A DNA stretch of 56,204 nt, from contig CACPJC010000006.1 in the NCBI GenBank assembly GCA_902634185.1, positions 1 through 56,204 on the forward strand, in the 5' to 3' direction. A program made the translations under genes and the position numbers. The notes under the pieces are model-generated. The model saw nothing but the letters and a program-made list of their open reading frames with translations, had not been told where the DNA came from and did no database searches. Numbering within the stretch: position 1 is the first letter of the stretch; the number at the start of each line of letters is the position of its first letter. Shown in pieces: positions 10,665-19,327 of the stretch. Source of the stretch: an uncultured Candidatus Actinomarina sp. Its GTDB lineage: Bacteria > Actinomycetota > Acidimicrobiia > Actinomarinales > Actinomarinaceae.

Positions 10665-11615
10665 TTAGCCAGTTGGTTCAACTGCTTCAGTAGTGATTTC
10701 TTCATCTGTTTCTAAAAGTCCACAGTCTTCGAGTACCTCGTCAGTGTTTCCACCACCAAATACTACTCTTTCAAAAACCACAACTGCATAAATCTCATCT
10801 TCAGTAAGTTTTCCTGTAAATCCCGGCATTCCACCGATTGATACTTTATTCTCTGCTCCATACGCGGGTCCAACTTCAGCCTGCCAACCTGCAGATCCTA
10901 ATTCAATCCACAATGCATGATCACTACAAGTTGGAAAAGTAGTATAAAGTTCTCCACCAGTAAATGCAGGACCTACCCCTCCACCACCATTTACTCCATG
11001 GCAACCAGCACATGCTGCAGCACCTGAATAAACTTGTTGTCCAAGTGCAATGTAGTTTATTGAGCTTGCAGACCCAACACCTTTTCCTTCAAATGCGGAT
11101 CCATCACAGTTAACGGTTAATTGAGTTTTTCGATCAACATCTAAAATTCCATTTTCCCCACATTCTTGTGTTGATGATGTATTGACTATCCCAATAACAA
11201 TAAAGAGAGGAATAAGTACAAAACTAAAATTTAGCCATCTGGGCAAAGATGTTTCAGTATTTACCTTTATATTCAATGTTTTATTTGCAAAGGAAACTTT
11301 GTGAATAACTTTTTTAACATTTTCTTTAGAGGATATTTCAGGAACATTTTGAGTATCCTCTTTTACAATTTCTGCAGTATCTTCTTTAGGCTGCTCTAAC
11401 TCTACTTTTTCTTCTACTGGTGGGGTTGGCTCTTCTGCTGATGGTGCTTCTTCAGCAGGTTTTTCTACAGAAGCTACACTTTCTCCTCCAGCCCATGATT
11501 GTAAAACTTCATCCACAGTTCTTCCAGAAGCTTCAGCTCTAGCTTCAGCAGATCGTTGCACCAACGACTCTGGTGCATTTAATAATTCAGCAACTTTACT
11601 TAAGAGTTCACTCAT
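10665..11615 (-). CDS. Membrane-anchored monoheme cytochrome c (CcoP position) with N-terminal shared module
   Basis: CAGCH heme motif, GPAF, GMPGF distal Met, one TM helix, N-terminal repeat module. Confidence 0.88.
   Translation of the reverse strand: MSELLSKVAELLNAPESLVQRSAEARAEASGRTVDEVLQSWAGGESVASVEKPAEEAPSAEEPTPPVEEKVELEQPKEDTAEIVKEDTQNVPEISSKENVKKVIHKVSFANKTLNIKVNTETSLPRWLNFSFVLIPLFIVIGIVNTSSTQECGENGILDVDRKTQLTVNCDGSAFEGKGVGSASSINYIALGQQVYSGAAACAGCHGVNGGGGVGPAFTGGELYTTFPTCSDHALWIELGSAGWQAEVGPAYGAENKVSIGGMPGFTGKLTEDEIYAVVVFERVVFGGGNTDEVLEDCGLLETDEEITTEAVEPTG
11442..11615. repeat. 174-bp perfect direct repeat, copy 1
   Basis: Identical base by base to 12247-12420; encodes the first 58 aa. 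Confidence 0.95.
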
Positions 11616-12420
11616 TTGTACTACCTAAAGATAATAAATAAGTTATTAAATAATCTAAATCTTGATCACTTAGGAAATTTATTGATGGATGAGGTATATC
11701 CTCTTTTACAGATGATGGTTCTAATAAATAATCTTTGAGCCATTCACTATCATTTGTAGGTTCTCGTGTTCCAAGCGTTGACAAATCTGGAGCTAACCTC
11801 AATAAGCCGGTATTTTGAATTAAATTTTTATTAGCAAATTTGTTTTTAAGTATTTTTCCATTTTGCGAATCAGGTATGAGTATTCTTACATTTTGCGTAT
11901 GACATGACTGGCAATTTAATTGATTATAAATAATTGCTCCTTCTAATACTTCTTCACTCACTCGAACAGAATTATTTAAAGATTGCAGAACTATATCTTC
12001 ACTTTGTTGCCTTGGTATTGAAAAAGCAAACATGTATGTGAATACAACTACACCGATCACACCAACAATAAAACTAAGAGAACTTTCTTTCTTTAATTCA
12101 ACATTTTCTTCCTCTATTTCAAGTTGGACAATTTCCTCATCATCATTTTCCTGAACAGAGATTGCATTTTCCTCATCTTGGTCCACAACAGTAGGAGGCT
12201 CTTCAACTGGTACAGTTTCTTCTGTAGGCGGTGCTTCTTGAATAGGTGGTGCTTCTTCAGCAGGTTTTTCTACAGAAGCTACACTTTCTCCTCCAGCCCA
12301 TGATTGTAAAACTTCATCCACAGTTCTTCCAGAAGCTTCAGCTCTAGCTTCAGCAGATCGTTGCACCAACGACTCTGGTGCATTTAATAATTCAGCAACT
12401 TTACTTAAGAGTTCACTCAT
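11608..12420 (-). CDS. CcoO/FixO-like monoheme cytochrome c with N-terminal shared module
   Basis: GAIIYNQLNCQSCHTQNVR resembles CcoO GRDIYIREGCYxCHSQMIR; GLLRLAPDLSTLG resembles GSKRTGPDLARVG. Confidence 0.8.
   Translation of the reverse strand: MSELLSKVAELLNAPESLVQRSAEARAEASGRTVDEVLQSWAGGESVASVEKPAEEAPPIQEAPPTEETVPVEEPPTVVDQDEENAISVQENDDEEIVQLEIEEENVELKKESSLSFIVGVIGVVVFTYMFAFSIPRQQSEDIVLQSLNNSVRVSEEVLEGAIIYNQLNCQSCHTQNVRILIPDSQNGKILKNKFANKNLIQNTGLLRLAPDLSTLGTREPTNDSEWLKDYLLEPSSVKEDIPHPSINFLSDQDLDYLITYLLSLGSTNE
12247..12420. repeat. 174-bp perfect direct repeat, copy 2
   Basis: Identical to 11442-11615. Confidence 0.95.
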
Positions 12421-13820
12421 ACTGGAAGCTCCTCTTCAGTAAGTTCAATTGTTTCTGCTTCTGTAATTTCTCCATTTACCACTGCCTTGACGACTGAAAT
12501 GAAAAACAACAGAAATGGAAGAAGTAATGTCAAAGATAAAAACATATTTAGCGTTAAAGGAGTACTGATCAGTGACCACAATAAACCGAACCCTTCACCA
12601 TAGATTGTTGGGTTTCCTGCATTGGCACCAGCATTCCATGAGTAACCAGAAATAACTCCAATTAAAGCATTAGAAAATAATGTTAAAGACACCACAAGTT
12701 TTAATAGAAAACTAGTTAAAGACTCAAGCCTTGAAAATTTGACTTCTCTTCCAAAGATTTTAGGAATCAGATAATAAACAAACGAGATTGTAATTAATAA
12801 TGCACTGAAAACATATCCATATCTGATTGCTATAGCAAAATTTGTAAGACTCAATATAGGAATGATATTTGAGAGCGAGGACACAATTTGAAAGATATTT
12901 GTAATAACAAATATTCCAAACGAGAAACTTATAAGACTATAAATTACTTTATTTTCGTCAACTCTTGTCGAGACCGTTCTGAAGAAATTTACAGCTATAG
13001 CAAGCAATGGGAGAGACAAACTTACAGACAAGTAAAGGGATATATTTTCAATCCAATTTGGTAATACAGAACCAAAATAAAATTTAAAATTTGACCAAGG
13101 AAGGAGAAATAAGAATCCCCAAAAACCTATAGATCCCAATGTTTTACTGTACAACGTAGCATTTATACCTTTTGTAATCATGAAATGAAGTAATGATAGA
13201 AATACGAACGAATATCCGACATATATATGTGTTGAAACATACATTGAATTAATGAAAAAATTATCACTAAATACAACAAAATCAGCTCCATAAATTAGAA
13301 GTGATATCAAATAAAAAATACTTGCACCAAAAAGATACTGACTACTTACAAACAGAGAAGCTTCTTTTTTGGCCAATAAATTTAATATAATGAGTCCAAC
13401 AAATGCAAAAAATATTAAGATTTTAAAAATTAATGTATAACTAGTATTCCCAAAGAACAAAAAACTATTAGGAAATAATATTCCTAATAATAGATCGAGT
13501 GACTCCAATCCAATAACTCCCAATGAAGTTAGAAAAAAAATTGGGAATATTATTAATTTTCTTCCAAGTGTTTTTGGTAATAAGTAAACAGTCAAAAACA
13601 CAATTAAAAATGAAAGCATCAAATTGTAAGTTATATGGTTATTTAGTTTTTCTAAATATCCGCTATTGAGAAAACTATTTTGTGGGAGTATGGCTGCGAA
13701 AATGAAATAAGCTTCTTTTGTTAATGCAATAGTTCCTAAAAGAAGCAAAAAAAGTGGAGTTAAAACAATAAAAAATTTTGAAAACGCTTGTTCATTTTTT
13801 GGAAAAATTTTTATTCTCAT
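12417..13820 (-). CDS. Degenerate CcoN-like (cbb3 heme-copper oxidase subunit I) membrane protein lacking canonical His ligands
   Basis: 467 aa, about 12 TM segments; FLNSGYLEKL, LYSKTLGSIGFW, LPNWIE and YYLIPKIFGRE align by eye to CcoN; only three His in the whole protein; precedes a ccoO-like gene. Confidence 0.72.
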   Translation of the reverse strand: MRIKIFPKNEQAFSKFFIVLTPLFLLLLGTIALTKEAYFIFAAILPQNSFLNSGYLEKLNNHITYNLMLSFLIVFLTVYLLPKTLGRKLIIFPIFFLTSLGVIGLESLDLLLGILFPNSFLFFGNTSYTLIFKILIFFAFVGLIILNLLAKKEASLFVSSQYLFGASIFYLISLLIYGADFVVFSDNFFINSMYVSTHIYVGYSFVFLSLLHFMITKGINATLYSKTLGSIGFWGFLFLLPWSNFKFYFGSVLPNWIENISLYLSVSLSLPLLAIAVNFFRTVSTRVDENKVIYSLISFSFGIFVITNIFQIVSSLSNIIPILSLTNFAIAIRYGYVFSALLITISFVYYLIPKIFGREVKFSRLESLTSFLLKLVVSLTLFSNALIGVISGYSWNAGANAGNPTIYGEGFGLLWSLISTPLTLNMFLSLTLLLPFLLFFISVVKAVVNGEITEAETIELTEEELPV

Positions 13821-13989
13821 TAATTTAAAAAGTAAGTACTCAATTTGACTTTACTATTAAACCATAGAAATTACTCCAATAAAATTAGTAATTTTTTGAA
13901 AAAGTTGGGTTATAAAATTTATAATATCTAGGTAATCCTTGATAGAATAGATATTGAAGGTTTTGAGTAAATAACGTGTTGAGGGAAAC

Positions 13990-14583
13990 TTGTTAAATTT
14001 TATATTTATTAACCGATACAAAATCGGAGTTGCTTTAATTTTTGCCGGAGTAGGTGGCATAACAATTGGAGTAATTATTGCACATTTCGCCGGATTTCCT
14101 GAAGGCGAAGTGATCGATTATTTTAATTGGATGCCTAGGGGCTGGCTAATGCAAACTATCGGGCAACTCATTGCTTTTGGTGCAGGACAATTCCTATTGA
14201 TTGGAATGGCTATGCTTGCATGGCAAGATTCTGAATTAACTTGGGCTAGAGCAACATATCTGGCATTTCTCAGTTGGATACAATTTGCACTTATATTTGG
14301 TGTATTGCCTTCTGAGTGGTTAAACCTTTCTCAAGGACCTCTTGAATGGACAAACCAAAGAGAGTTTATTAACTTTCCTCCAATTTTATTTTTAGGTAAC
14401 GAAATAGGAATGAGCCTCGGAGCTCTGAAAGACATTATTCAACTTGGTATATCAGGTGGAGCATTAGTGACAGCTTTTGTAGTAGGGTATCTAATTCAAG
14501 ATATCAACGAAGCAAAAGAAAGAGGCAAAACTAGAGTTTCTGATTATGGAAAACAAGTCGTGAAGGTAGGTGCTGATGGCTAA
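13990..14583 (+). CDS. Membrane protein of unknown function, first gene of the bc-complex operon
   Basis: 197 aa, about 4 TM segments, TTG start with GAGGG RBS, overlaps the ferredoxin gene. Confidence 0.75.
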   Translation: MLNFIFINRYKIGVALIFAGVGGITIGVIIAHFAGFPEGEVIDYFNWMPRGWLMQTIGQLIAFGAGQFLLIGMAMLAWQDSELTWARATYLAFLSWIQFALIFGVLPSEWLNLSQGPLEWTNQREFINFPPILFLGNEIGMSLGALKDIIQLGISGGALVTAFVVGYLIQDINEAKERGKTRVSDYGKQVVKVGADG

Positions 14584-15025
14584 ATCAGAAGTACTTATTG
14601 AAATGCCTGAATTTGAAAAAAAATACAATTTAGCTATGGTCGAAGCCGAAAAGGTTTCATCAAGGGTTAGGCCAAAACAGTTTTTACATATTGATGAGGC
14701 AGAGTGCATTTTATGTGAAGGATGTGTAGATATCTGTCCATGGAAATGCATACATTATTTATCAACAGACGCTATAGAAGACTCTATAAACGTGGAAGCT
14801 CCTAACATGGAAGATAACGAAACGGGATTTTTTGTTGTCGATGAAGAAGCTTGTACAAGATGTGCATTATGTGTTGATAGGTGCCCAACAGGGGTTATAT
14901 CGCTCGGTAAGTTTGCTGGATCTTTAGCGGATGCAGCAATAAAGAACGGTGTTTATGAATCTCCATGGGATGAAGACTCAGGAGAGAGAAGTGACCGTCA
15001 TGGCTATATATATGGAAGACTTTAA
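14576..15025 (+). CDS. 2x[4Fe-4S] ferredoxin-like protein
   Basis: CILCEGCVDICP and CTRCALCVDRCP; ATG 14576 preferred over GTG 14570. Confidence 0.92.
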   Translation: MAKSEVLIEMPEFEKKYNLAMVEAEKVSSRVRPKQFLHIDEAECILCEGCVDICPWKCIHYLSTDAIEDSINVEAPNMEDNETGFFVVDEEACTRCALCVDRCPTGVISLGKFAGSLADAAIKNGVYESPWDEDSGERSDRHGYIYGRL

Positions 15026-15804
15026 TGAAGAACGAAAAAATTAAATTTAGAGATCGATTAAAAGATATTAGTTCGGGACTGGGAGAGTCTTTAAAAGAAA
15101 GTACGCTTTGGGGAAGTATTTTTAGACCAGGATCTCCATTTAGAAAAGGTTATTCAGATAGTCCAAGAAATAGATCATATGTTGTTATGAACAATGTTTT
15201 GTATCACCTCCATCCAGTAAAAGTAAAAAGACATGGTGTTAGGTTGTCATATACACTTTGCTTAGGAGGATTAAGCTTCTTCACATTTATTGTTTTGACC
15301 ATAACTGGTATTTGGTTGATGTTTTATTTTAGACCTACAGAAATGGCATATGTTGATATCCAATCTTTACAGACAAGTATTGCGTTTGGATCTCTAGTTA
15401 GAAATATGCACAGGTGGGCGGCTCATATAATGGTGTTAGTAGTGTTTCTTCACATGTCTCGAGTTTTTTATCATGGGGCGTACAAAGCACCTAGAGAGTT
15501 TAACTGGGTGATTGGAGTTATATTATTACTTTTAACACTTCTACTTTCATTTACTGGCTATCTACTTCCATGGGACCAGTTGGCGATTTGGGCTGTGACT
15601 GTGGGTGGAAACATGGCAGGCTATACTCCCGTTTTTGGTGCCCAAGTTAAGTTTGCATTATTTGCAGGACTAGAAGCTACTGAAGCAACACTTCTTAGAT
15701 TCTATGTTTTACATGTTCTATTTTTTCCTTTCATCATTGTAATTTTTATGGCAATTCATTTCTGGCGAGTAAGAAAGGATGGAGGAATCTCAGGTCCTCT
15801 ATAA
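15025..15804 (+). CDS. petB: Cytochrome b6-like subunit (split cytochrome b, N-terminal part) of a Rieske/cytochrome b complex
   Basis: LCLGG, RNMHRWAAH, FLHMSRV, PREFNW, FTGYLLPWDQ, RFYVLH, AIHF; 4-helix length. Confidence 0.92.
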   Translation: MKNEKIKFRDRLKDISSGLGESLKESTLWGSIFRPGSPFRKGYSDSPRNRSYVVMNNVLYHLHPVKVKRHGVRLSYTLCLGGLSFFTFIVLTITGIWLMFYFRPTEMAYVDIQSLQTSIAFGSLVRNMHRWAAHIMVLVVFLHMSRVFYHGAYKAPREFNWVIGVILLLLTLLLSFTGYLLPWDQLAIWAVTVGGNMAGYTPVFGAQVKFALFAGLEATEATLLRFYVLHVLFFPFIIVIFMAIHFWRVRKDGGISGPL

Positions 15805-15810
15805 ATATAT

Positions 15811-16665
15811 ATGGTTGATATTCCAGAACATTTATTATTAAAAACTGCTGAAGCAAGAGCTAAGGCCTTAGGTATTTCAGTTGAACAAGCATTGGCTGAA
15901 ATGAGAGGTGAAGCTGAGCCTACCAAAATTGAGAAAGAGCCAGATGTTATTGAAGTTACTCCAATTGAAGTAGAAGCCAAAGAAACACCAGCACCAGCAG
16001 CTGAAGTGAAAGAAACACCAGCACCAGCAGCTGAAGTCAAAGAAACACCAGCACCAGCAGCTGCAGTAAAAGAAGCACCGGCTCCTACACCTGAAAAATC
16101 AAACGGACAAGTACCTACTGAAGTAGATTTTGCACCTGAGACAAAAGTAACACAAAGGTTGCTTACGGTCGTCAAAGCAAAGCCAATACAAAAACCAACT
16201 TCTGAACCAGTTGATAAAGTAAACACATGGCCTCATTTAATGTTGCCAGAGTTTATTTCATTAATGGCAATGACAGCGTTTTTGATTTTTATAAGTGCAA
16301 TTTTGCAAGCTCCTTTATTAGAAGAAGCAAATCCAAACATTACACCAAACCCTGCAAAAGCACCATGGTACTTTTTAGGACTACAAGAATTACTCTCCTA
16401 TTGGGATCCACAGATCGCAGGGGTGATGATACCTCTTCTAATTGGTGTTGCAGCATTTATGGCAATTCCATATATTGATCGAAATAAAGAAAATAAGCCT
16501 TCAAAAAGAAAATATGCAATAATGTTGTGGACATTTTTTCTGGCAGGTGCTGGAACATTAAGTCTTATAGGTATTTTATTTAGAGGCCCAGGTTGGAACT
16601 GGACGTATCCATGGATTGATGGTGTATGGTTCGATGACTTACTTGACTGGGTCCATTTCGAATGA
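15811..16665 (+). CDS. petD: Subunit IV-like protein (cytochrome b C-terminal part) with N-terminal shared module and PA-rich linker
   Basis: WPHL, ANPNITPNPAKAPWYFLGLQELL, IPYIDR, 3 TM segments. Confidence 0.88.
   Translation: MVDIPEHLLLKTAEARAKALGISVEQALAEMRGEAEPTKIEKEPDVIEVTPIEVEAKETPAPAAEVKETPAPAAEVKETPAPAAAVKEAPAPTPEKSNGQVPTEVDFAPETKVTQRLLTVVKAKPIQKPTSEPVDKVNTWPHLMLPEFISLMAMTAFLIFISAILQAPLLEEANPNITPNPAKAPWYFLGLQELLSYWDPQIAGVMIPLLIGVAAFMAIPYIDRNKENKPSKRKYAIMLWTFFLAGAGTLSLIGILFRGPGWNWTYPWIDGVWFDDLLDWVHFE
15979..16079 (+). repeat. 30-bp tandem repeat, three copies plus a partial, encoding (KETPAPAAEV)n
   Basis: aaagaaacaccagcaccagcagctgaagt(g/c) units at 15979, 16009 and 16039 (third copy has one further change), degenerate at 16069. 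Confidence 0.92.
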
Positions 16666-17540
16666 CTCTTGTTGAGCTTTCATTTATTGCAATTGCATTT
16701 ATTGGAGTTTTTGGTGTAATTGGAATTGCAGCTGTAGTAACTGGAAGAACCCCAAAAGCTGTAACAAAAAGATTAAATTGGAAAAAGAATTTAGACAAAA
16801 AAGCTTTAAAAGTTGATAAATCTCAAACAAATTTTTTAGCTCCAGATGAACCAGATTTTGAAGAAGAAAACGTATCTGAAGATAGCGAACAAGAGGAAGA
16901 AGAAATTCAAACCGATGGATCCATTGCAATAAAAGAAGAAATAATTTATGAAGAAATTTCAGAAGAAGAAGCTGGAATGACTCGTAGACAATTTTTGGGT
17001 AAAGCCCTTGGAATCACGTTTGGAGCATTTGCTGGTATACAATTAATTTCTTGGCTTGGATTCTTCTATCCAAAAGTTTCTGGAGGTTTTGGATCTAAAA
17101 TAGATGCTGGTAGAGTTGATGATCTTAAAGACCAAATTTTCCAGTCAGATGGTTCAGTTATTCCTGCATTCATCCCGGAAGCAAGAGCTTATGTCTTACC
17201 ATTTGATGACAATGGCAACTCTCAGTTTTCTGATAGTGGAACTATTGCAGACGGTTTAGTTGCAGTTTATCAACGATGTGTTCATTTAGGTTGCCGTGTT
17301 CCATGGTGTAATACTTCACAAGGATTTGAATGTCCATGTCATGGTTCAAAATACAATATGGTTGGTGAGTATTACGCAGGTCCTGCTCCAAGAAACTTAG
17401 ATAGATTTATTGTAAGTGTTTCAGGAGGAAAATTAATTATTGACACAGGATCAGTCATTGAGTCACCTCGAGCTGATGGTATGTCTGTGAAATATCCACA
17501 AGGACTTTCATGTATCACAATCGCAGAGACTGAGGAATAA
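16662..17540 (+). CDS. Rieske [2Fe-2S] subunit of the bc complex
   Basis: CVHLGC and CPCHGSKY boxes, GPAPRNL, internal TRRQFL Tat motif followed by a TM helix. Confidence 0.95.
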   Translation: MTLVELSFIAIAFIGVFGVIGIAAVVTGRTPKAVTKRLNWKKNLDKKALKVDKSQTNFLAPDEPDFEEENVSEDSEQEEEEIQTDGSIAIKEEIIYEEISEEEAGMTRRQFLGKALGITFGAFAGIQLISWLGFFYPKVSGGFGSKIDAGRVDDLKDQIFQSDGSVIPAFIPEARAYVLPFDDNGNSQFSDSGTIADGLVAVYQRCVHLGCRVPWCNTSQGFECPCHGSKYNMVGEYYAGPAPRNLDRFIVSVSGGKLIIDTGSVIESPRADGMSVKYPQGLSCITIAETEE

Positions 17541-17541
17541 A

Positions 17542-18966
17542 ATGAATAGCTCGTTTTTCATAACATTAATCGCATTAGCAGTGGTTGGTGCAATAGCTTA
17601 TTTTTCTGCAGTTGGTTTTCGTGGAGCAGGAAAAATCAAAAAAGTACCAAGAAATTTACAAAAATATCTTCCGGATGATGAATTAGAGACTACTCACCTT
17701 GATAAAACATTATCAATAGCAGTTGTGCTAGCTTCTTTACTTACAATTATGATTCCACTTTATTATCTCGGTGAACCAGCGAGACAAGAAAGTTTTGTAG
17801 AGGAGTTTGACGACGTTTCAGTTGAAAGAGGGCATCATCTTTACGAAGAGTTTGGGTGTGGAAACTGCCATGGAGTAGATGGAAGTGGTGGAGCAGCTTC
17901 ATATGTTGAAAAAAGAAGTGGTGTAAGTGTTACATGGGTAGCCCCTGCAATAAACAATGTGTTTTATAGATATGATGATGAAGAAGTAAGATATTGGCTT
18001 ATATACGGTAGAGCAAACTCACCTATGCCAGCTTGGGGTCTAAAAGGCGGAGGTCCAATGAATGATGGACAGCTTGACGACTTAATAGAGTATTTGCATT
18101 ATTTTCAAATTCCACAAAGTGAAGAACTTCAACAAATTGAACAAAATATAAACTCATCTTTGCTTCGAATTGAAAATTCCGATTTACAAGTTGAAAGTGA
18201 GATTAATAAACAACATGAACTTATCGACAACATTAAGGCAGCTCCGGAAAGACTACCTGTTGCAATTGAAGCTGTTGAAATTGTCTCTGCCATCCTAGCA
18301 AGGCAGAACGGAATCGATACCGATGAAGATGGGCTTTTTGATTCGGTAGAAACAGATATATCAGTTTATAGTGAAAGTGTTGCAGATGTTTTGGGTACTA
18401 CAATTTTAAATCTAAATCCAGATGAAGAAGAATCAACACCAGGAAGAAAAGATGCATCAGTCGTTAGGGGGTACCTTTCTGATCTCGAAACGAGTGTTAT
18501 TAATCTTGGAATACTTACTGATGGTTATGACAAATTTATGGAGGAAGCAGAAAAAGGTTTAGCATTTCTTGAAAATGCCTACGAACAAAAATTATGGCTT
18601 ATTGATTTCCAAGATATTGCAGATTCAACTTTTGATGGAGATTATGACAAAGCAACAAGAGCAGTAGGAATATTTAATGCATATTGTGCGAGATGTCACA
18701 CTGCTGGTTATTCTGCAGGAGCTGCATATACAAAAACAATTGGTTCTGGAGGGTTAGGTCCTGCATTAAAAGGTGGACGAGTAAATATTCAGTTTAAAGA
18801 GAGAGATGACTTCATCGATTTTATTATCAACGGTTCCGTCAACGGCAAAGGTTATGGAGTCAATGGAGTTGGTGGTGGAAAAATGCCAGGATTTGGTGCG
18901 GTACTTCCACAGTCAGATATAGAATTGGTTATAGATTATTTGAGAGGAATGACACCTGATGCGTGA
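17542..18966 (+). CDS. Membrane-anchored diheme cytochrome c
   Basis: CGNCH with MPAW, CARCH with MPGF, two N-terminal TM segments. Confidence 0.9.
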   Translation: MNSSFFITLIALAVVGAIAYFSAVGFRGAGKIKKVPRNLQKYLPDDELETTHLDKTLSIAVVLASLLTIMIPLYYLGEPARQESFVEEFDDVSVERGHHLYEEFGCGNCHGVDGSGGAASYVEKRSGVSVTWVAPAINNVFYRYDDEEVRYWLIYGRANSPMPAWGLKGGGPMNDGQLDDLIEYLHYFQIPQSEELQQIEQNINSSLLRIENSDLQVESEINKQHELIDNIKAAPERLPVAIEAVEIVSAILARQNGIDTDEDGLFDSVETDISVYSESVADVLGTTILNLNPDEEESTPGRKDASVVRGYLSDLETSVINLGILTDGYDKFMEEAEKGLAFLENAYEQKLWLIDFQDIADSTFDGDYDKATRAVGIFNAYCARCHTAGYSAGAAYTKTIGSGGLGPALKGGRVNIQFKERDDFIDFIINGSVNGKGYGVNGVGGGKMPGFGAVLPQSDIELVIDYLRGMTPDA

Positions 18967-19327
18967 GATAATGAGAACCCTGTTGTCATCTAATTTGACA
19001 TTTACTGGAATTTTCCTTTTTGTTCTTTTTGTTCTCTCATTTTTTGGATCAACTTTTATTTTGAACGCAACAAACTTAGGTAGAAGACTTGGTTTCCTTG
19101 TTGTTGGAGCTGCAACTTTTGGATGGCTAGTTATTAATTCATTTCTGTTTATACTTTATGCTCCTAGGGGCCCAGCCCCATCATCGATAGATGGTCTAAA
19201 CGCTCTAGAAATTAGAATTATTCCAATTACTTATTTTGCTGGATCTTTAATACTTTTTATTATGTTTATGCTTGCTTTAAATAGATACGAACAAGAAGAA
19301 AAAGATACAGAAGAAACAAATAGTTAA
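18959..19327 (+). CDS. Small membrane protein, last gene of the bc operon
   Basis: 122 aa, 3 TM segments, overlaps the cytochrome c stop. Confidence 0.75.
   Translation: MREIMRTLLSSNLTFTGIFLFVLFVLSFFGSTFILNATNLGRRLGFLVVGAATFGWLVINSFLFILYAPRGPAPSSIDGLNALEIRIIPITYFAGSLILFIMFMLALNRYEQEEKDTEETNS

Follow-up and report, generated by a model that had tools for sequence, protein, structure and literature searches.

A predicted helical module on cytoplasmic tethers of electron-transfer proteins in Candidatus Actinomarina and other Acidimicrobiia

Introduction

In the E2 component, the peripheral subunit-binding domain (PSBD) is placed between the lipoyl and the catalytic domains and acts as a docking site on a swinging tether. 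Polyketide synthase docking domains and the cohesin-dockerin pair are likewise small terminal modules, borne on linkers, which specify which large enzymes adjoin each other. Here, we describe a small module of comparable architecture on respiratory proteins of Candidatus Actinomarina, one of the most abundant bacteria in the surface ocean and one of the most streamlined.

The DNA under study, called the window below, is the whole contig CACPJC010000006.1 (56,204 nucleotides (nts)) of the assembly GCA_902634185.1, from an uncultured Candidatus Actinomarina sp. It is contig C6 of a genome of 974 kb in 16 contigs, which is 83% complete. The original prediction, made from the sequence of the window, was that a membrane-anchored cytochrome c, a CcoO-like protein and subunit IV of cytochrome b share an N-terminal helical module of about 30 residues. 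The module is confirmed as real, and it is spread more widely than was first noted.

A module shared by three respiratory subunits

The module occurs in two forms, named Trp-type (W-type) and Met-type (M-type) after a diagnostic residue. The cytochrome c and the CcoO-like protein carry the W-type and subunit IV carries the M-type. The prediction was based on an ungapped alignment of these N-termini, in which a count by eye on the translations agrees with 13/29 identities; the coordinates and sequences were also as described. When the compared stretch is offset by two residues, 12/29 identities and a BLOSUM62 score of 56 are obtained. None of 100,000 composition-preserving shuffles reached either value. 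As a pairwise match, the relationship between the W-type copies and the subunit IV copy is borderline (expectation value (E) 0.0106 and 0.0075 in a search of this genome). A hidden Markov model (HMM) for which other genomes supplied all Trp-type copies matches the subunit IV copy of the window with an E of 8.8e-7. The corresponding HMM, for which other genomes supplied all Met-type copies, matches the cytochrome c copy at 1.8e-8 and the CcoO-like copy at 1.5e-8. Both HMMs were searched against 12,446 six-frame open reading frames, among which unrelated frames start at E ≥ 1.1. Because profiles built solely on other genomes link the two forms, their similarity can be considered settled. The module is therefore present in all three subunits, as proposed, with the corrections that the two W-type copies are not independent of each other and that the hosts extend beyond these three proteins.

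In each protein, a flexible linker (77, 66 and 106 residues, respectively) follows the module and leads to the first transmembrane (TM) helix, as had been described. The statement that the canonical families have no such extension also holds, as the FixO profile match starts at residue 116 and the PetD match at residues 139-172. Subunit IV matches the Cytochrom_B_C profile above the cut-off (PF00032, 30.3 bits vs 20.7). The CcoO-like protein matches PF02433 with 29.6 bits, a value exactly equal to the cut-off, and scores 20.7 bits with TIGR00781 (ccoO), for which the cut-off is 200.65; all NCBIfam models for cbb3 subunit II are far below their cut-offs. Judged by these profiles, it appears to be CcoO-like and divergent.

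Predicted fold, linkers and topology

AlphaFold2 modelled the cytochrome c copy (26-row alignment) as a three-helix bundle with helices at residues 2-12, 16-30 and 34-42 and a mean pLDDT of 85. The subunit IV copy (20-row alignment) was modelled as a two-helix hairpin, with helices at residues 6-20 and 24-31 and a mean pLDDT of 84.6. The N-terminal copy of subunit IV starts at helix 2, and the internal copies found in subunit IV arrays possess helix 1. The full Trp-type form is thus predicted to comprise about 45 residues in three helices and the N-terminal Met-type form about 30 residues in a two-helix hairpin. The earlier description of a discrete helical module on a flexible linker is supported.

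Conserved features of the module are the Pro opening helix 2, the run R/K-S/T-A-E-A-R-A, the Gly of the turn, and the Val and Leu of helix 3. Across the class, the Pro and the Gly are invariant, and A-x-A-R-A and the Leu are near-invariant. The subtypes differ at one position of helix 3, which lies in W-A-G-G-E in the W-type and in M-K-G-E in the M-type. The cytochrome c copy of the window shares 28-54% identity with copies from other families of the class. Over its 32-column core (26 sequences), the module carries a median net charge of -1, with a range of -4 to +2.

The linkers of this genome, located before or after the module, are Pro-rich, 31-106 residues long and carry a net charge of -6 to -29. 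Their composition is rich in Pro/Glu/Val, and that of the linkers in other families of the class in Pro/Ala. Part of the subunit IV linker consists of ETPAPAAEVK units, which correspond in the DNA to a tandem repeat of 30 nts (3.4 copies, 94% matches; 15979-16079). In agreement with this repeat, the lengths of public subunit IV proteins step by 10 residues, from 254 to 304 (274 residues in 21 proteins, 284 in 40 and 294 in 14, counted in the 113 full-length proteins out of 120 listed). Comparison of the sequences suggests that the module is under strong constraint and the tether under none.

The proposal that the modules are cytoplasmic holds in every host. In the heme-c hosts, the module must be inside because the heme c domain is outside, beyond a single TM helix, and the N-terminus of subunit IV lies on the n-side according to the established topology of cytochrome b. 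The further hosts KorA and NuoI, described below, are cytoplasmic proteins.

Further hosts and the partition of subtypes

A whole-genome search, in the 83% of the genome that is available, identified six copies in five proteins and no further copy below E 0.5. Besides the cytochrome c, the CcoO-like protein and subunit IV, the hosts are KorA, which bears a copy at both ends, and a 354-residue membrane protein. KorA (896 residues, contig C3) carries PF01558, PF01855, PF02776 and PF17147, the four domains of the alpha subunit of 2-oxoacid:ferredoxin oxidoreductases. One module is at its N-terminus and another near its C-terminus, each set apart from the enzyme by a Val/Glu/Pro linker, and both are 67-68% identical to the subunit IV copy. 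Past the second module, the KorA tail (C3:39050-39337) consists of about 95 highly charged residues with ERV(V/T) repeats, to which no family could be assigned. The 354-residue protein (contig C7) is polytopic, belongs to no family and has its module at the N-terminus. Its gene directly follows the COX3, COX4_pro and Caa3_CtaG genes of the aa3 operon.

In one other Actinomarina genome (G014), a module and linker precede NuoI (L052:1262-2038), a fusion seen in this genome only. This module and linker are 49% identical to subunit IV over 105 residues, and the NuoI itself is 91% identical to the NuoI of the genome analysed here, in which no module was found. The gene of the latter belongs to a nuoA-B-C-D-H-I-J-K-L cluster without E, F and G (C1:167835-177803). 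The same genome has a second, complete nuo cluster (C1:189323-203585), which was named by gene order and size alone. The sequence similarities suggest that the M-type cassette spread recently within the genus to KorA and, in one genome, to NuoI.

In other Acidimicrobiia, homologues of the small 122-residue membrane protein encoded last in the bc operon of the window (18959-19327) carry 3 and 7 tandem modules; the 122-residue protein is 46% identical to the proteins P0015 and P0004 (BLASTP E 8e-30 and 1e-28). The cytochrome c and subunit IV proteins of relatives have 1 to 5 copies. Tandem arrays thus reach 7 copies, with Pro/Ala linkers between them.

The subtype of the module tracks its host, with the W-type on the oxidase side and the M-type on the bc complex, KorA and NuoI. 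Counted as distinct module sequences, and leaving unclassed 184 more modules on truncated or unidentified hosts, Trp occupies the diagnostic position in 108/110 modules of heme-c hosts and in 10/10 modules of the aa3-operon protein, but on the donor-side hosts only in 4/39 modules of subunit IV, 1/9 of the bc small protein, 0/2 of KorA and 0/1 of NuoI.

Several short public proteins (P0061, P0073, P0087, P0134, P0136 and P0149) start with a module and end in CLLYTSPSPRD, SYTHLTLPT or LSLIHISEPTRP. We take such ends to be translated sequencing adapters or chimeric read ends, and many short “hosts” are accordingly regarded as assembly artefacts.

Taxonomic range

A profile search of 1.84 billion representative proteins returned 487 clusters at E ≤ 0.001, 330 of which had an E ≤ 1e-10. 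Within the class, in a tally of 39 genomes that includes the one analysed here, matches at E ≤ 0.001 were found in 22/22 other genomes of the genus and in 9/16 genomes of other families. In a sample of 301 genomes of the phylum, eight matched at E ≤ 1e-5, all of which belong to the class, and none of the 279 genomes from other classes of the phylum did so at this threshold. A scan of species-representative genomes left 79 loci, labelled Actinomarina, Actinomarinales, Acidimicrobiia, Acidimicrobiaceae, or just Actinomycetota, Actinomycetes or actinobacterium, with a single exception (L082). Hence, as far as sequence searches can tell, the module is found only in one class, Acidimicrobiia, the class name being taken from record labels. 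The exception is a contig labelled as a Gammaproteobacteria metagenome-assembled genome, which holds an Actinomarina-type cytochrome c/CcoO-like pair with modules (73% identity), and its label in the public record probably results from wrong binning.

Two families of the class, f3 (4/4) and f7 (8/8), lack the full module, and the N-terminus of their subunit IV bears a reduced form instead. In this form, there is just a single basic helix, present once or twice, IPEHLLKRAQAAREKAA ... RIPAHLLERSKAAKAK (IPEHLLKR...). The full or the reduced form is present in 19/21 other class genomes of the sample, a tally that includes the unpublished genome G177; G202 and G254 showed neither form at the thresholds used. 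Outside the class, the reduced form as query gave weak matches only (E 3.2e-4 to 9.4e-3), several of them with stop codons.

Concerted evolution of two adjacent copies

The first 174 nts of the cytochrome c and CcoO-like genes, counted from the start codon, are 100% identical in DNA (11442-11615 and 12247-12420, both on the minus strand), and the identity ends sharply on both sides of this stretch. For this reason, the two copies count as one sequence. Among 23 loci of the Actinomarina group that hold both copies, 12 pairs are identical over 46/46 residues and 9 pairs over 138/138 nts. The median identity between the two copies is 46/46 residues within a genome vs 36/46 between genomes. As the identity of the pair recurs in relatives while the sequence itself differs from genome to genome, repeated gene conversion is indicated, and the 174-nt identity agrees with such an exchange between the 5′ ends of the two genes.

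Genomic setting

The module region of the window (GC content 29-38% in 2-kb windows) contains two divergently transcribed operons, the features of which are listed in Table 1. The oxidase catalytic subunit is very divergent, as it scores 41 bits with TIGR00780 (ccoN), for which the cut-off is 583. At two loci from two other families (L046 and L047), the place of the oxidase subunit beside the cytochrome c is taken by an open frame that is 672-686 residues long and has a single heme-c motif. This suggests a fusion of the oxidase catalytic subunit with the CcoO-like protein.

In the bc operon, the ferredoxin-like gene is directly upstream of cytochrome b6 and overlaps the end of the gene for the 197-residue membrane protein. 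In 7/8 class loci checked, subunit IV has a gene with two 4Fe-4S motifs on its cytochrome b side, an unusual arrangement for a Rieske/cytochrome b operon. The ferredoxin-like protein of the window is a candidate partner of the module. The Rieske gene follows subunit IV in 8/8 class loci, and the di-heme cytochrome c comes next in all five loci that are sufficiently long. In these five long loci, the oxidase genes adjoin the bc operon in divergent orientation.

Table 1. Features of the module-bearing region of the window
Feature	Position	Strand	Evidence or remark
Membrane-anchored cytochrome c	10665-11615	minus	
Trp-type (W) module, residues 1-45 of cytochrome c	11481..11615	minus	translation, HMM matches, AlphaFold2
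Cytochrome c linker, ~77 residues, rich in Glu/Val/Lys/Pro, net charge -7, up to first TM helix	11250..11480	minus	
TM anchor and class I cytochrome c domain	10665..11249	minus	PF00034 E 1.2e-7, PF13442 1.4e-6, residues 189-281
CcoO-like mono-heme protein	11608-12420	minus	
W-type module, residues 1-45 of CcoO-like protein	12286..12420	minus	same as cytochrome c copy
CcoO-like protein linker, ~66 residues, net charge -19	12088..12285	minus	
TM anchor and FixO/CcoO-like mono-heme domain	11608..12087	minus	PF02433 E 6.1e-7, residues 116-257
Divergent CcoN-like heme-copper oxidase subunit	12417-13820	minus	PF00115 E 6.1e-10
197-residue membrane protein	13990-14583	plus	no family matched
2x[4Fe-4S] ferredoxin-like protein, 151 residues	14570-15025	plus	Pfam Fer4 families
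Cytochrome b6	15025-15804	plus	
Subunit IV	15811-16665	plus	PEHLL begins at 15823
Met-type (M) module of subunit IV, residues 1-35	15811..15915	plus	translation, AlphaFold2
Subunit IV linker, ~106 residues, rich in Pro/Glu/Ala/Val, net charge -6	15916..16233	plus	
Three-TM PetD-like body of subunit IV	16234..16665	plus	PF00032 E 5e-7, residues 172-254
Rieske protein	16662-17540	plus	
Di-heme cytochrome c	17542-18966	plus	
122-residue membrane protein, last gene of the bc operon	18959-19327	plus	no module here

A possible docking handle

We favour the reading that the module is a docking handle, which co-localises electron-transfer enzymes through module-module contacts or through a common partner, and give it a probability of roughly one in three. 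Two roles raised in the original prediction, an oligomerising tether and a handle for a soluble partner, belong to the family of explanations that we prefer. The module would be an independently folding mini-domain on a disordered, Pro-rich tether at the cytoplasmic end of electron-transfer enzymes, and would bind either like modules or a shared cytoplasmic partner; it is both the binding and the nature of the partner that we infer. Docking would keep the bc complex, the cbb3-like oxidase, the aa3 oxidase and the EFG-less complex I close together and near KorA, which is soluble and belongs to the ferredoxin-reducing 2-oxoacid oxidoreductase family. Avidity would increase with tandem copies, and the two subtypes would represent two specificities, the W-type for the oxidase side and the M-type for the electron-donor side (bc complex, KorA and NuoI). 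A docking handle is preferred to a catalytic or structural part because the small fold is conserved, the tether is variable, copies occur in tandem, the module is portable and the subtypes are host-specific. The hosts span the respiratory chain and the ferredoxin-linked KorA, and the concerted evolution of the cytochrome c and CcoO-like copies fits both having the same partner to meet. It is also likely that a 1-Mb genome spending several hundred codons on module and tether, in five proteins of energy metabolism, obtains some return.

A bolder version would be a cytoplasmic “Velcro” of two specificities, in which the W-modules of the oxidases pair with the M-modules of the bc complex, of the complex I without NADH module and of soluble KorAB. 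We consider it rather improbable. If true, flexible tethers and not rigid membrane contacts would build a respiratory megacomplex that includes a soluble enzyme linked to the tricarboxylic acid cycle. The predicted complex of an M module with a W module scored 0.01 vs a mark of 0.32, which weighs neither way.

Several observations weigh against a docking handle. No interaction was shown by any tool used, the M + W pair being the sole complex predicted. Among known docking domains, the module has no relative detectable by Pfam, PDB-sequence, fold or hhalign searches. For a peptide that is short and helical, high AlphaFold confidence proves little about autonomous folding, and the M-type hairpin may be unstable by itself. 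In view of the single-helix lineages, the essential element may be a short linear motif and not a folded domain. The partition of subtypes between hosts is drawn from related genomes that are not independent, and its counts overstate the support. One host, P0167, is a formate-tetrahydrofolate ligase (PF01268) and not an electron-transfer protein. This is a single member on a single 14-kb contig. The first 40 residues of the protein form a Met-type module with the same sequence as subunit IV N-termini from related samples; the fusion may be true, or the repeated cassette may have led to an assembly chimera. Finally, gene conversion can homogenise two adjacent identical 5′ ends without selection, and the pair matches at only 23-37 of 46 residues in 10 loci from other Acidimicrobiia.

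Other functions have to be weighed against this reading. All M-type hosts are located at a ferredoxin node, and the module, or at least its M-type, might be a handle that captures soluble or complex-bound ferredoxin. Ferredoxin reduced by KorAB would then be passed to the module-bearing bc complex, with its ferredoxin-like subunit, and to the EFG-less complex I. KorA is of a ferredoxin-reducing family, NuoI comes from a complex I cluster without NADH module, and the conserved gene with two 4Fe-4S motifs beside subunit IV points in the same direction. For the truncated complex I cluster, the Actinomarinales genome paper proposes another donor, coenzyme F420 (PMC7771536). On the other hand, the W-type hosts with redox domains outside the cell (the cytochrome c and the CcoO-like protein) have no evident use for such a handle. 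Bacterial ferredoxins are acidic as a rule, and because the module and its linkers are acidic as well, electrostatics would oppose the binding. We hold capture of ferredoxin to be unlikely. The original prediction had also raised a membrane-anchored DNA-binding unit. An HTH-like (helix-turn-helix) unit tying DNA or RNA to membrane complexes is suggested by the A-x-x-L-G-I/V-S pattern of the module, which resembles the turn of this fold, by the presence of ANTAR RNA-binding domains among the best natural fold matches (Z 4.6-4.9), and by array proteins that gather sub-threshold HTH matches when these are summed (Xre-like HTH in 3/55 proteins, best E 7e-10, no single stretch passing). Such sums are of little weight, as designed helical repeat proteins produce the same effect in the PDB search. 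For single modules there is no HTH match at E ≤ 10, save a winged-helix row at E 0.16, and Z values below 6 are uninformative for helical bundles. Above all, the core (median charge -1) and the linkers (-6 to -29) are acidic, which makes DNA binding unlikely and disfavours the membrane-anchored role; of the functions considered, binding of nucleic acids is the one we hold to be very improbable.

The module could also serve as an assembly or quality-control tag, read by a chaperone, an insertase, a cofactor-insertion factor or a protease to which the tether gives access. Most copies are found at the extreme N-terminus of subunits that bear cofactors or form complexes, one host gene adjoins that of the assembly factor CtaG, and related lineages retain one conserved short helix, similar to a linear recognition motif. 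Arrays of up to 7 copies and the C-terminal copy of KorA would, on the other hand, be unusual in a tag for targeting or degradation, no candidate for a reader protein emerged, and subunit IV and the KorA alpha subunit, to our knowledge, bind no cofactor of their own. We regard this explanation as fairly unlikely, and a similarly low likelihood is given to a passive appendage, i.e., a solubility aid, an entropic bristle or a spacer at the crowded cytoplasmic face of the membrane. The latter would account for linkers that are long, disordered, variable in length, highly acidic here and of a composition that changes with the lineage, as well as for the lack of homology to binding domains in our searches. 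A spacer, however, needs neither an invariant Pro and Gly, nor a near-invariant A-x-A-R-A and Leu, nor two host-specific subtypes, and its retention on five proteins of a streamlined 1-Mb genome is not expected. The remaining probability includes a short-motif mechanism, as suggested by the reduced one-helix form, and binding of the conserved Arg pair to the membrane surface.

Even without a function, the module defines an unannotated domain family, which accounts for “extra” N-terminal stretches in hundreds of public proteins. The 120 proteins listed are mostly unnamed, and the few names are “hypothetical protein” and “menaquinol-cytochrome c reductase cytochrome b subunit”. A docking handle of this kind, if confirmed, would represent a new way of organising a respiratory chain, by soft cytoplasmic tethers that recruit a soluble ferredoxin-linked enzyme, and a compact pair of natural docking tags would be gained.

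Comparison with known domains and systems

The searches for an already characterised domain yielded no Pfam, NCBIfam, PDB-sequence or clear fold match to the module. With five single modules, the only Pfam match at E ≤ 10 was the SSO1393-like WHD (winged helix, E 0.16), and no NCBIfam model spans the module in whole host proteins; a PspA match at residues 17-137 of subunit IV was rejected as due to the low complexity of the linker. The HTH families Xre-like, HTH_23 and HTH_31 reach low E only on multi-copy proteins, with zero stretches passing singly, and the median charge of the core differs from the basic nucleic-acid-binding surface of these families. A sequence profile search of the PDB retrieved only designed helical repeat proteins, from summed matches of 11-17 residues. 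Foldseek gave no match in the PDB at E ≤ 0.001, and the named clusters of the ESM Atlas no usable one. In the wide VIA-align search, the top match was a designed toroid (Z 5.9) and the best natural ones were the RPA AROD domain (5.2-5.3), followed by ANTAR domains, all within the range (Z < 6) that the tool itself notes as uninformative for helical bundles.

The original prediction had pointed to ribbon-helix-helix (RHH) or peripheral-subunit-binding helices, and neither resemblance was supported. The AlphaFold2 models are all-helical, without the strand of RHH proteins, and SvtR, Rv0298 and TraM align over 32 residues only (Z 2.9-3.0). The PSBD family PF02817 does not match the five single modules at E ≤ 10. 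Searched against this genome, it picks out the true E2 copy alone (C3:136100-136201; 9 candidates scored) and none of the six modules, and it identifies the true E2 domain in 24/25 other class genomes, away from the mapped module-bearing frames. An hhalign comparison of the module profile with 25 PSBDs of the class gave a probability of 0.2% (global) and 3.2% (local). PSBD chains are absent among 19 Foldseek and 50 VIA rows, although a missing match does not prove that the folds differ. The hosts of the module (cytochrome c, CcoO-like protein, subunit IV, KorA, NuoI and membrane proteins) also differ from the E2 protein in which the PSBD is placed.

No paper describing the module was found in the literature searched, in which supplements were not covered, and the motif strings PEHLLKR, IPEHLL, PEHLLRR and PAHLLER were not found there either. 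The same literature yielded nothing on respiratory supercomplexes of Acidimicrobiia. The words cytochrome, ferredoxin, N-terminal and linker are absent from the main text of the Actinomarinales genome paper (PMC7771536).

The C-terminal bodies of the three window proteins match canonical CcoO/FixO, CcoP and PetD, and the module and linker are an addition outside these models. With ANTAR domains, the module shares three short helices of similar lengths (NasR, EutV, Rv1626 and AmiR align over 44-47 residues, with Z values in the uninformative range). In contrast to HTH and ANTAR domains, it is acidic and sits on membrane respiratory proteins and not on regulators. The likeness to the PSBD is that of a helical mini-domain of about 35-45 residues, with Ala/Pro-rich flexible flanking linkers and a superficially similar S-x-x-A-R-x-x-A-x-x-x-G-I/V pattern. 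It differs by its location on respiratory membrane subunits and KorA, by its tandem arrays, by its predicted three-helix bundle and by the absence of a sequence relationship. From sequence comparison, it thus appears to combine a PSBD-like architecture with an unrelated sequence, on hosts where no such mini-domain is known. Set beside general descriptions of polyketide synthase docking domains and of cohesin-dockerin, the W and M subtypes might provide pairing specificity as those systems do; the latter act in secondary metabolism or extracellularly, whereas the hosts of the module are core respiratory enzymes.

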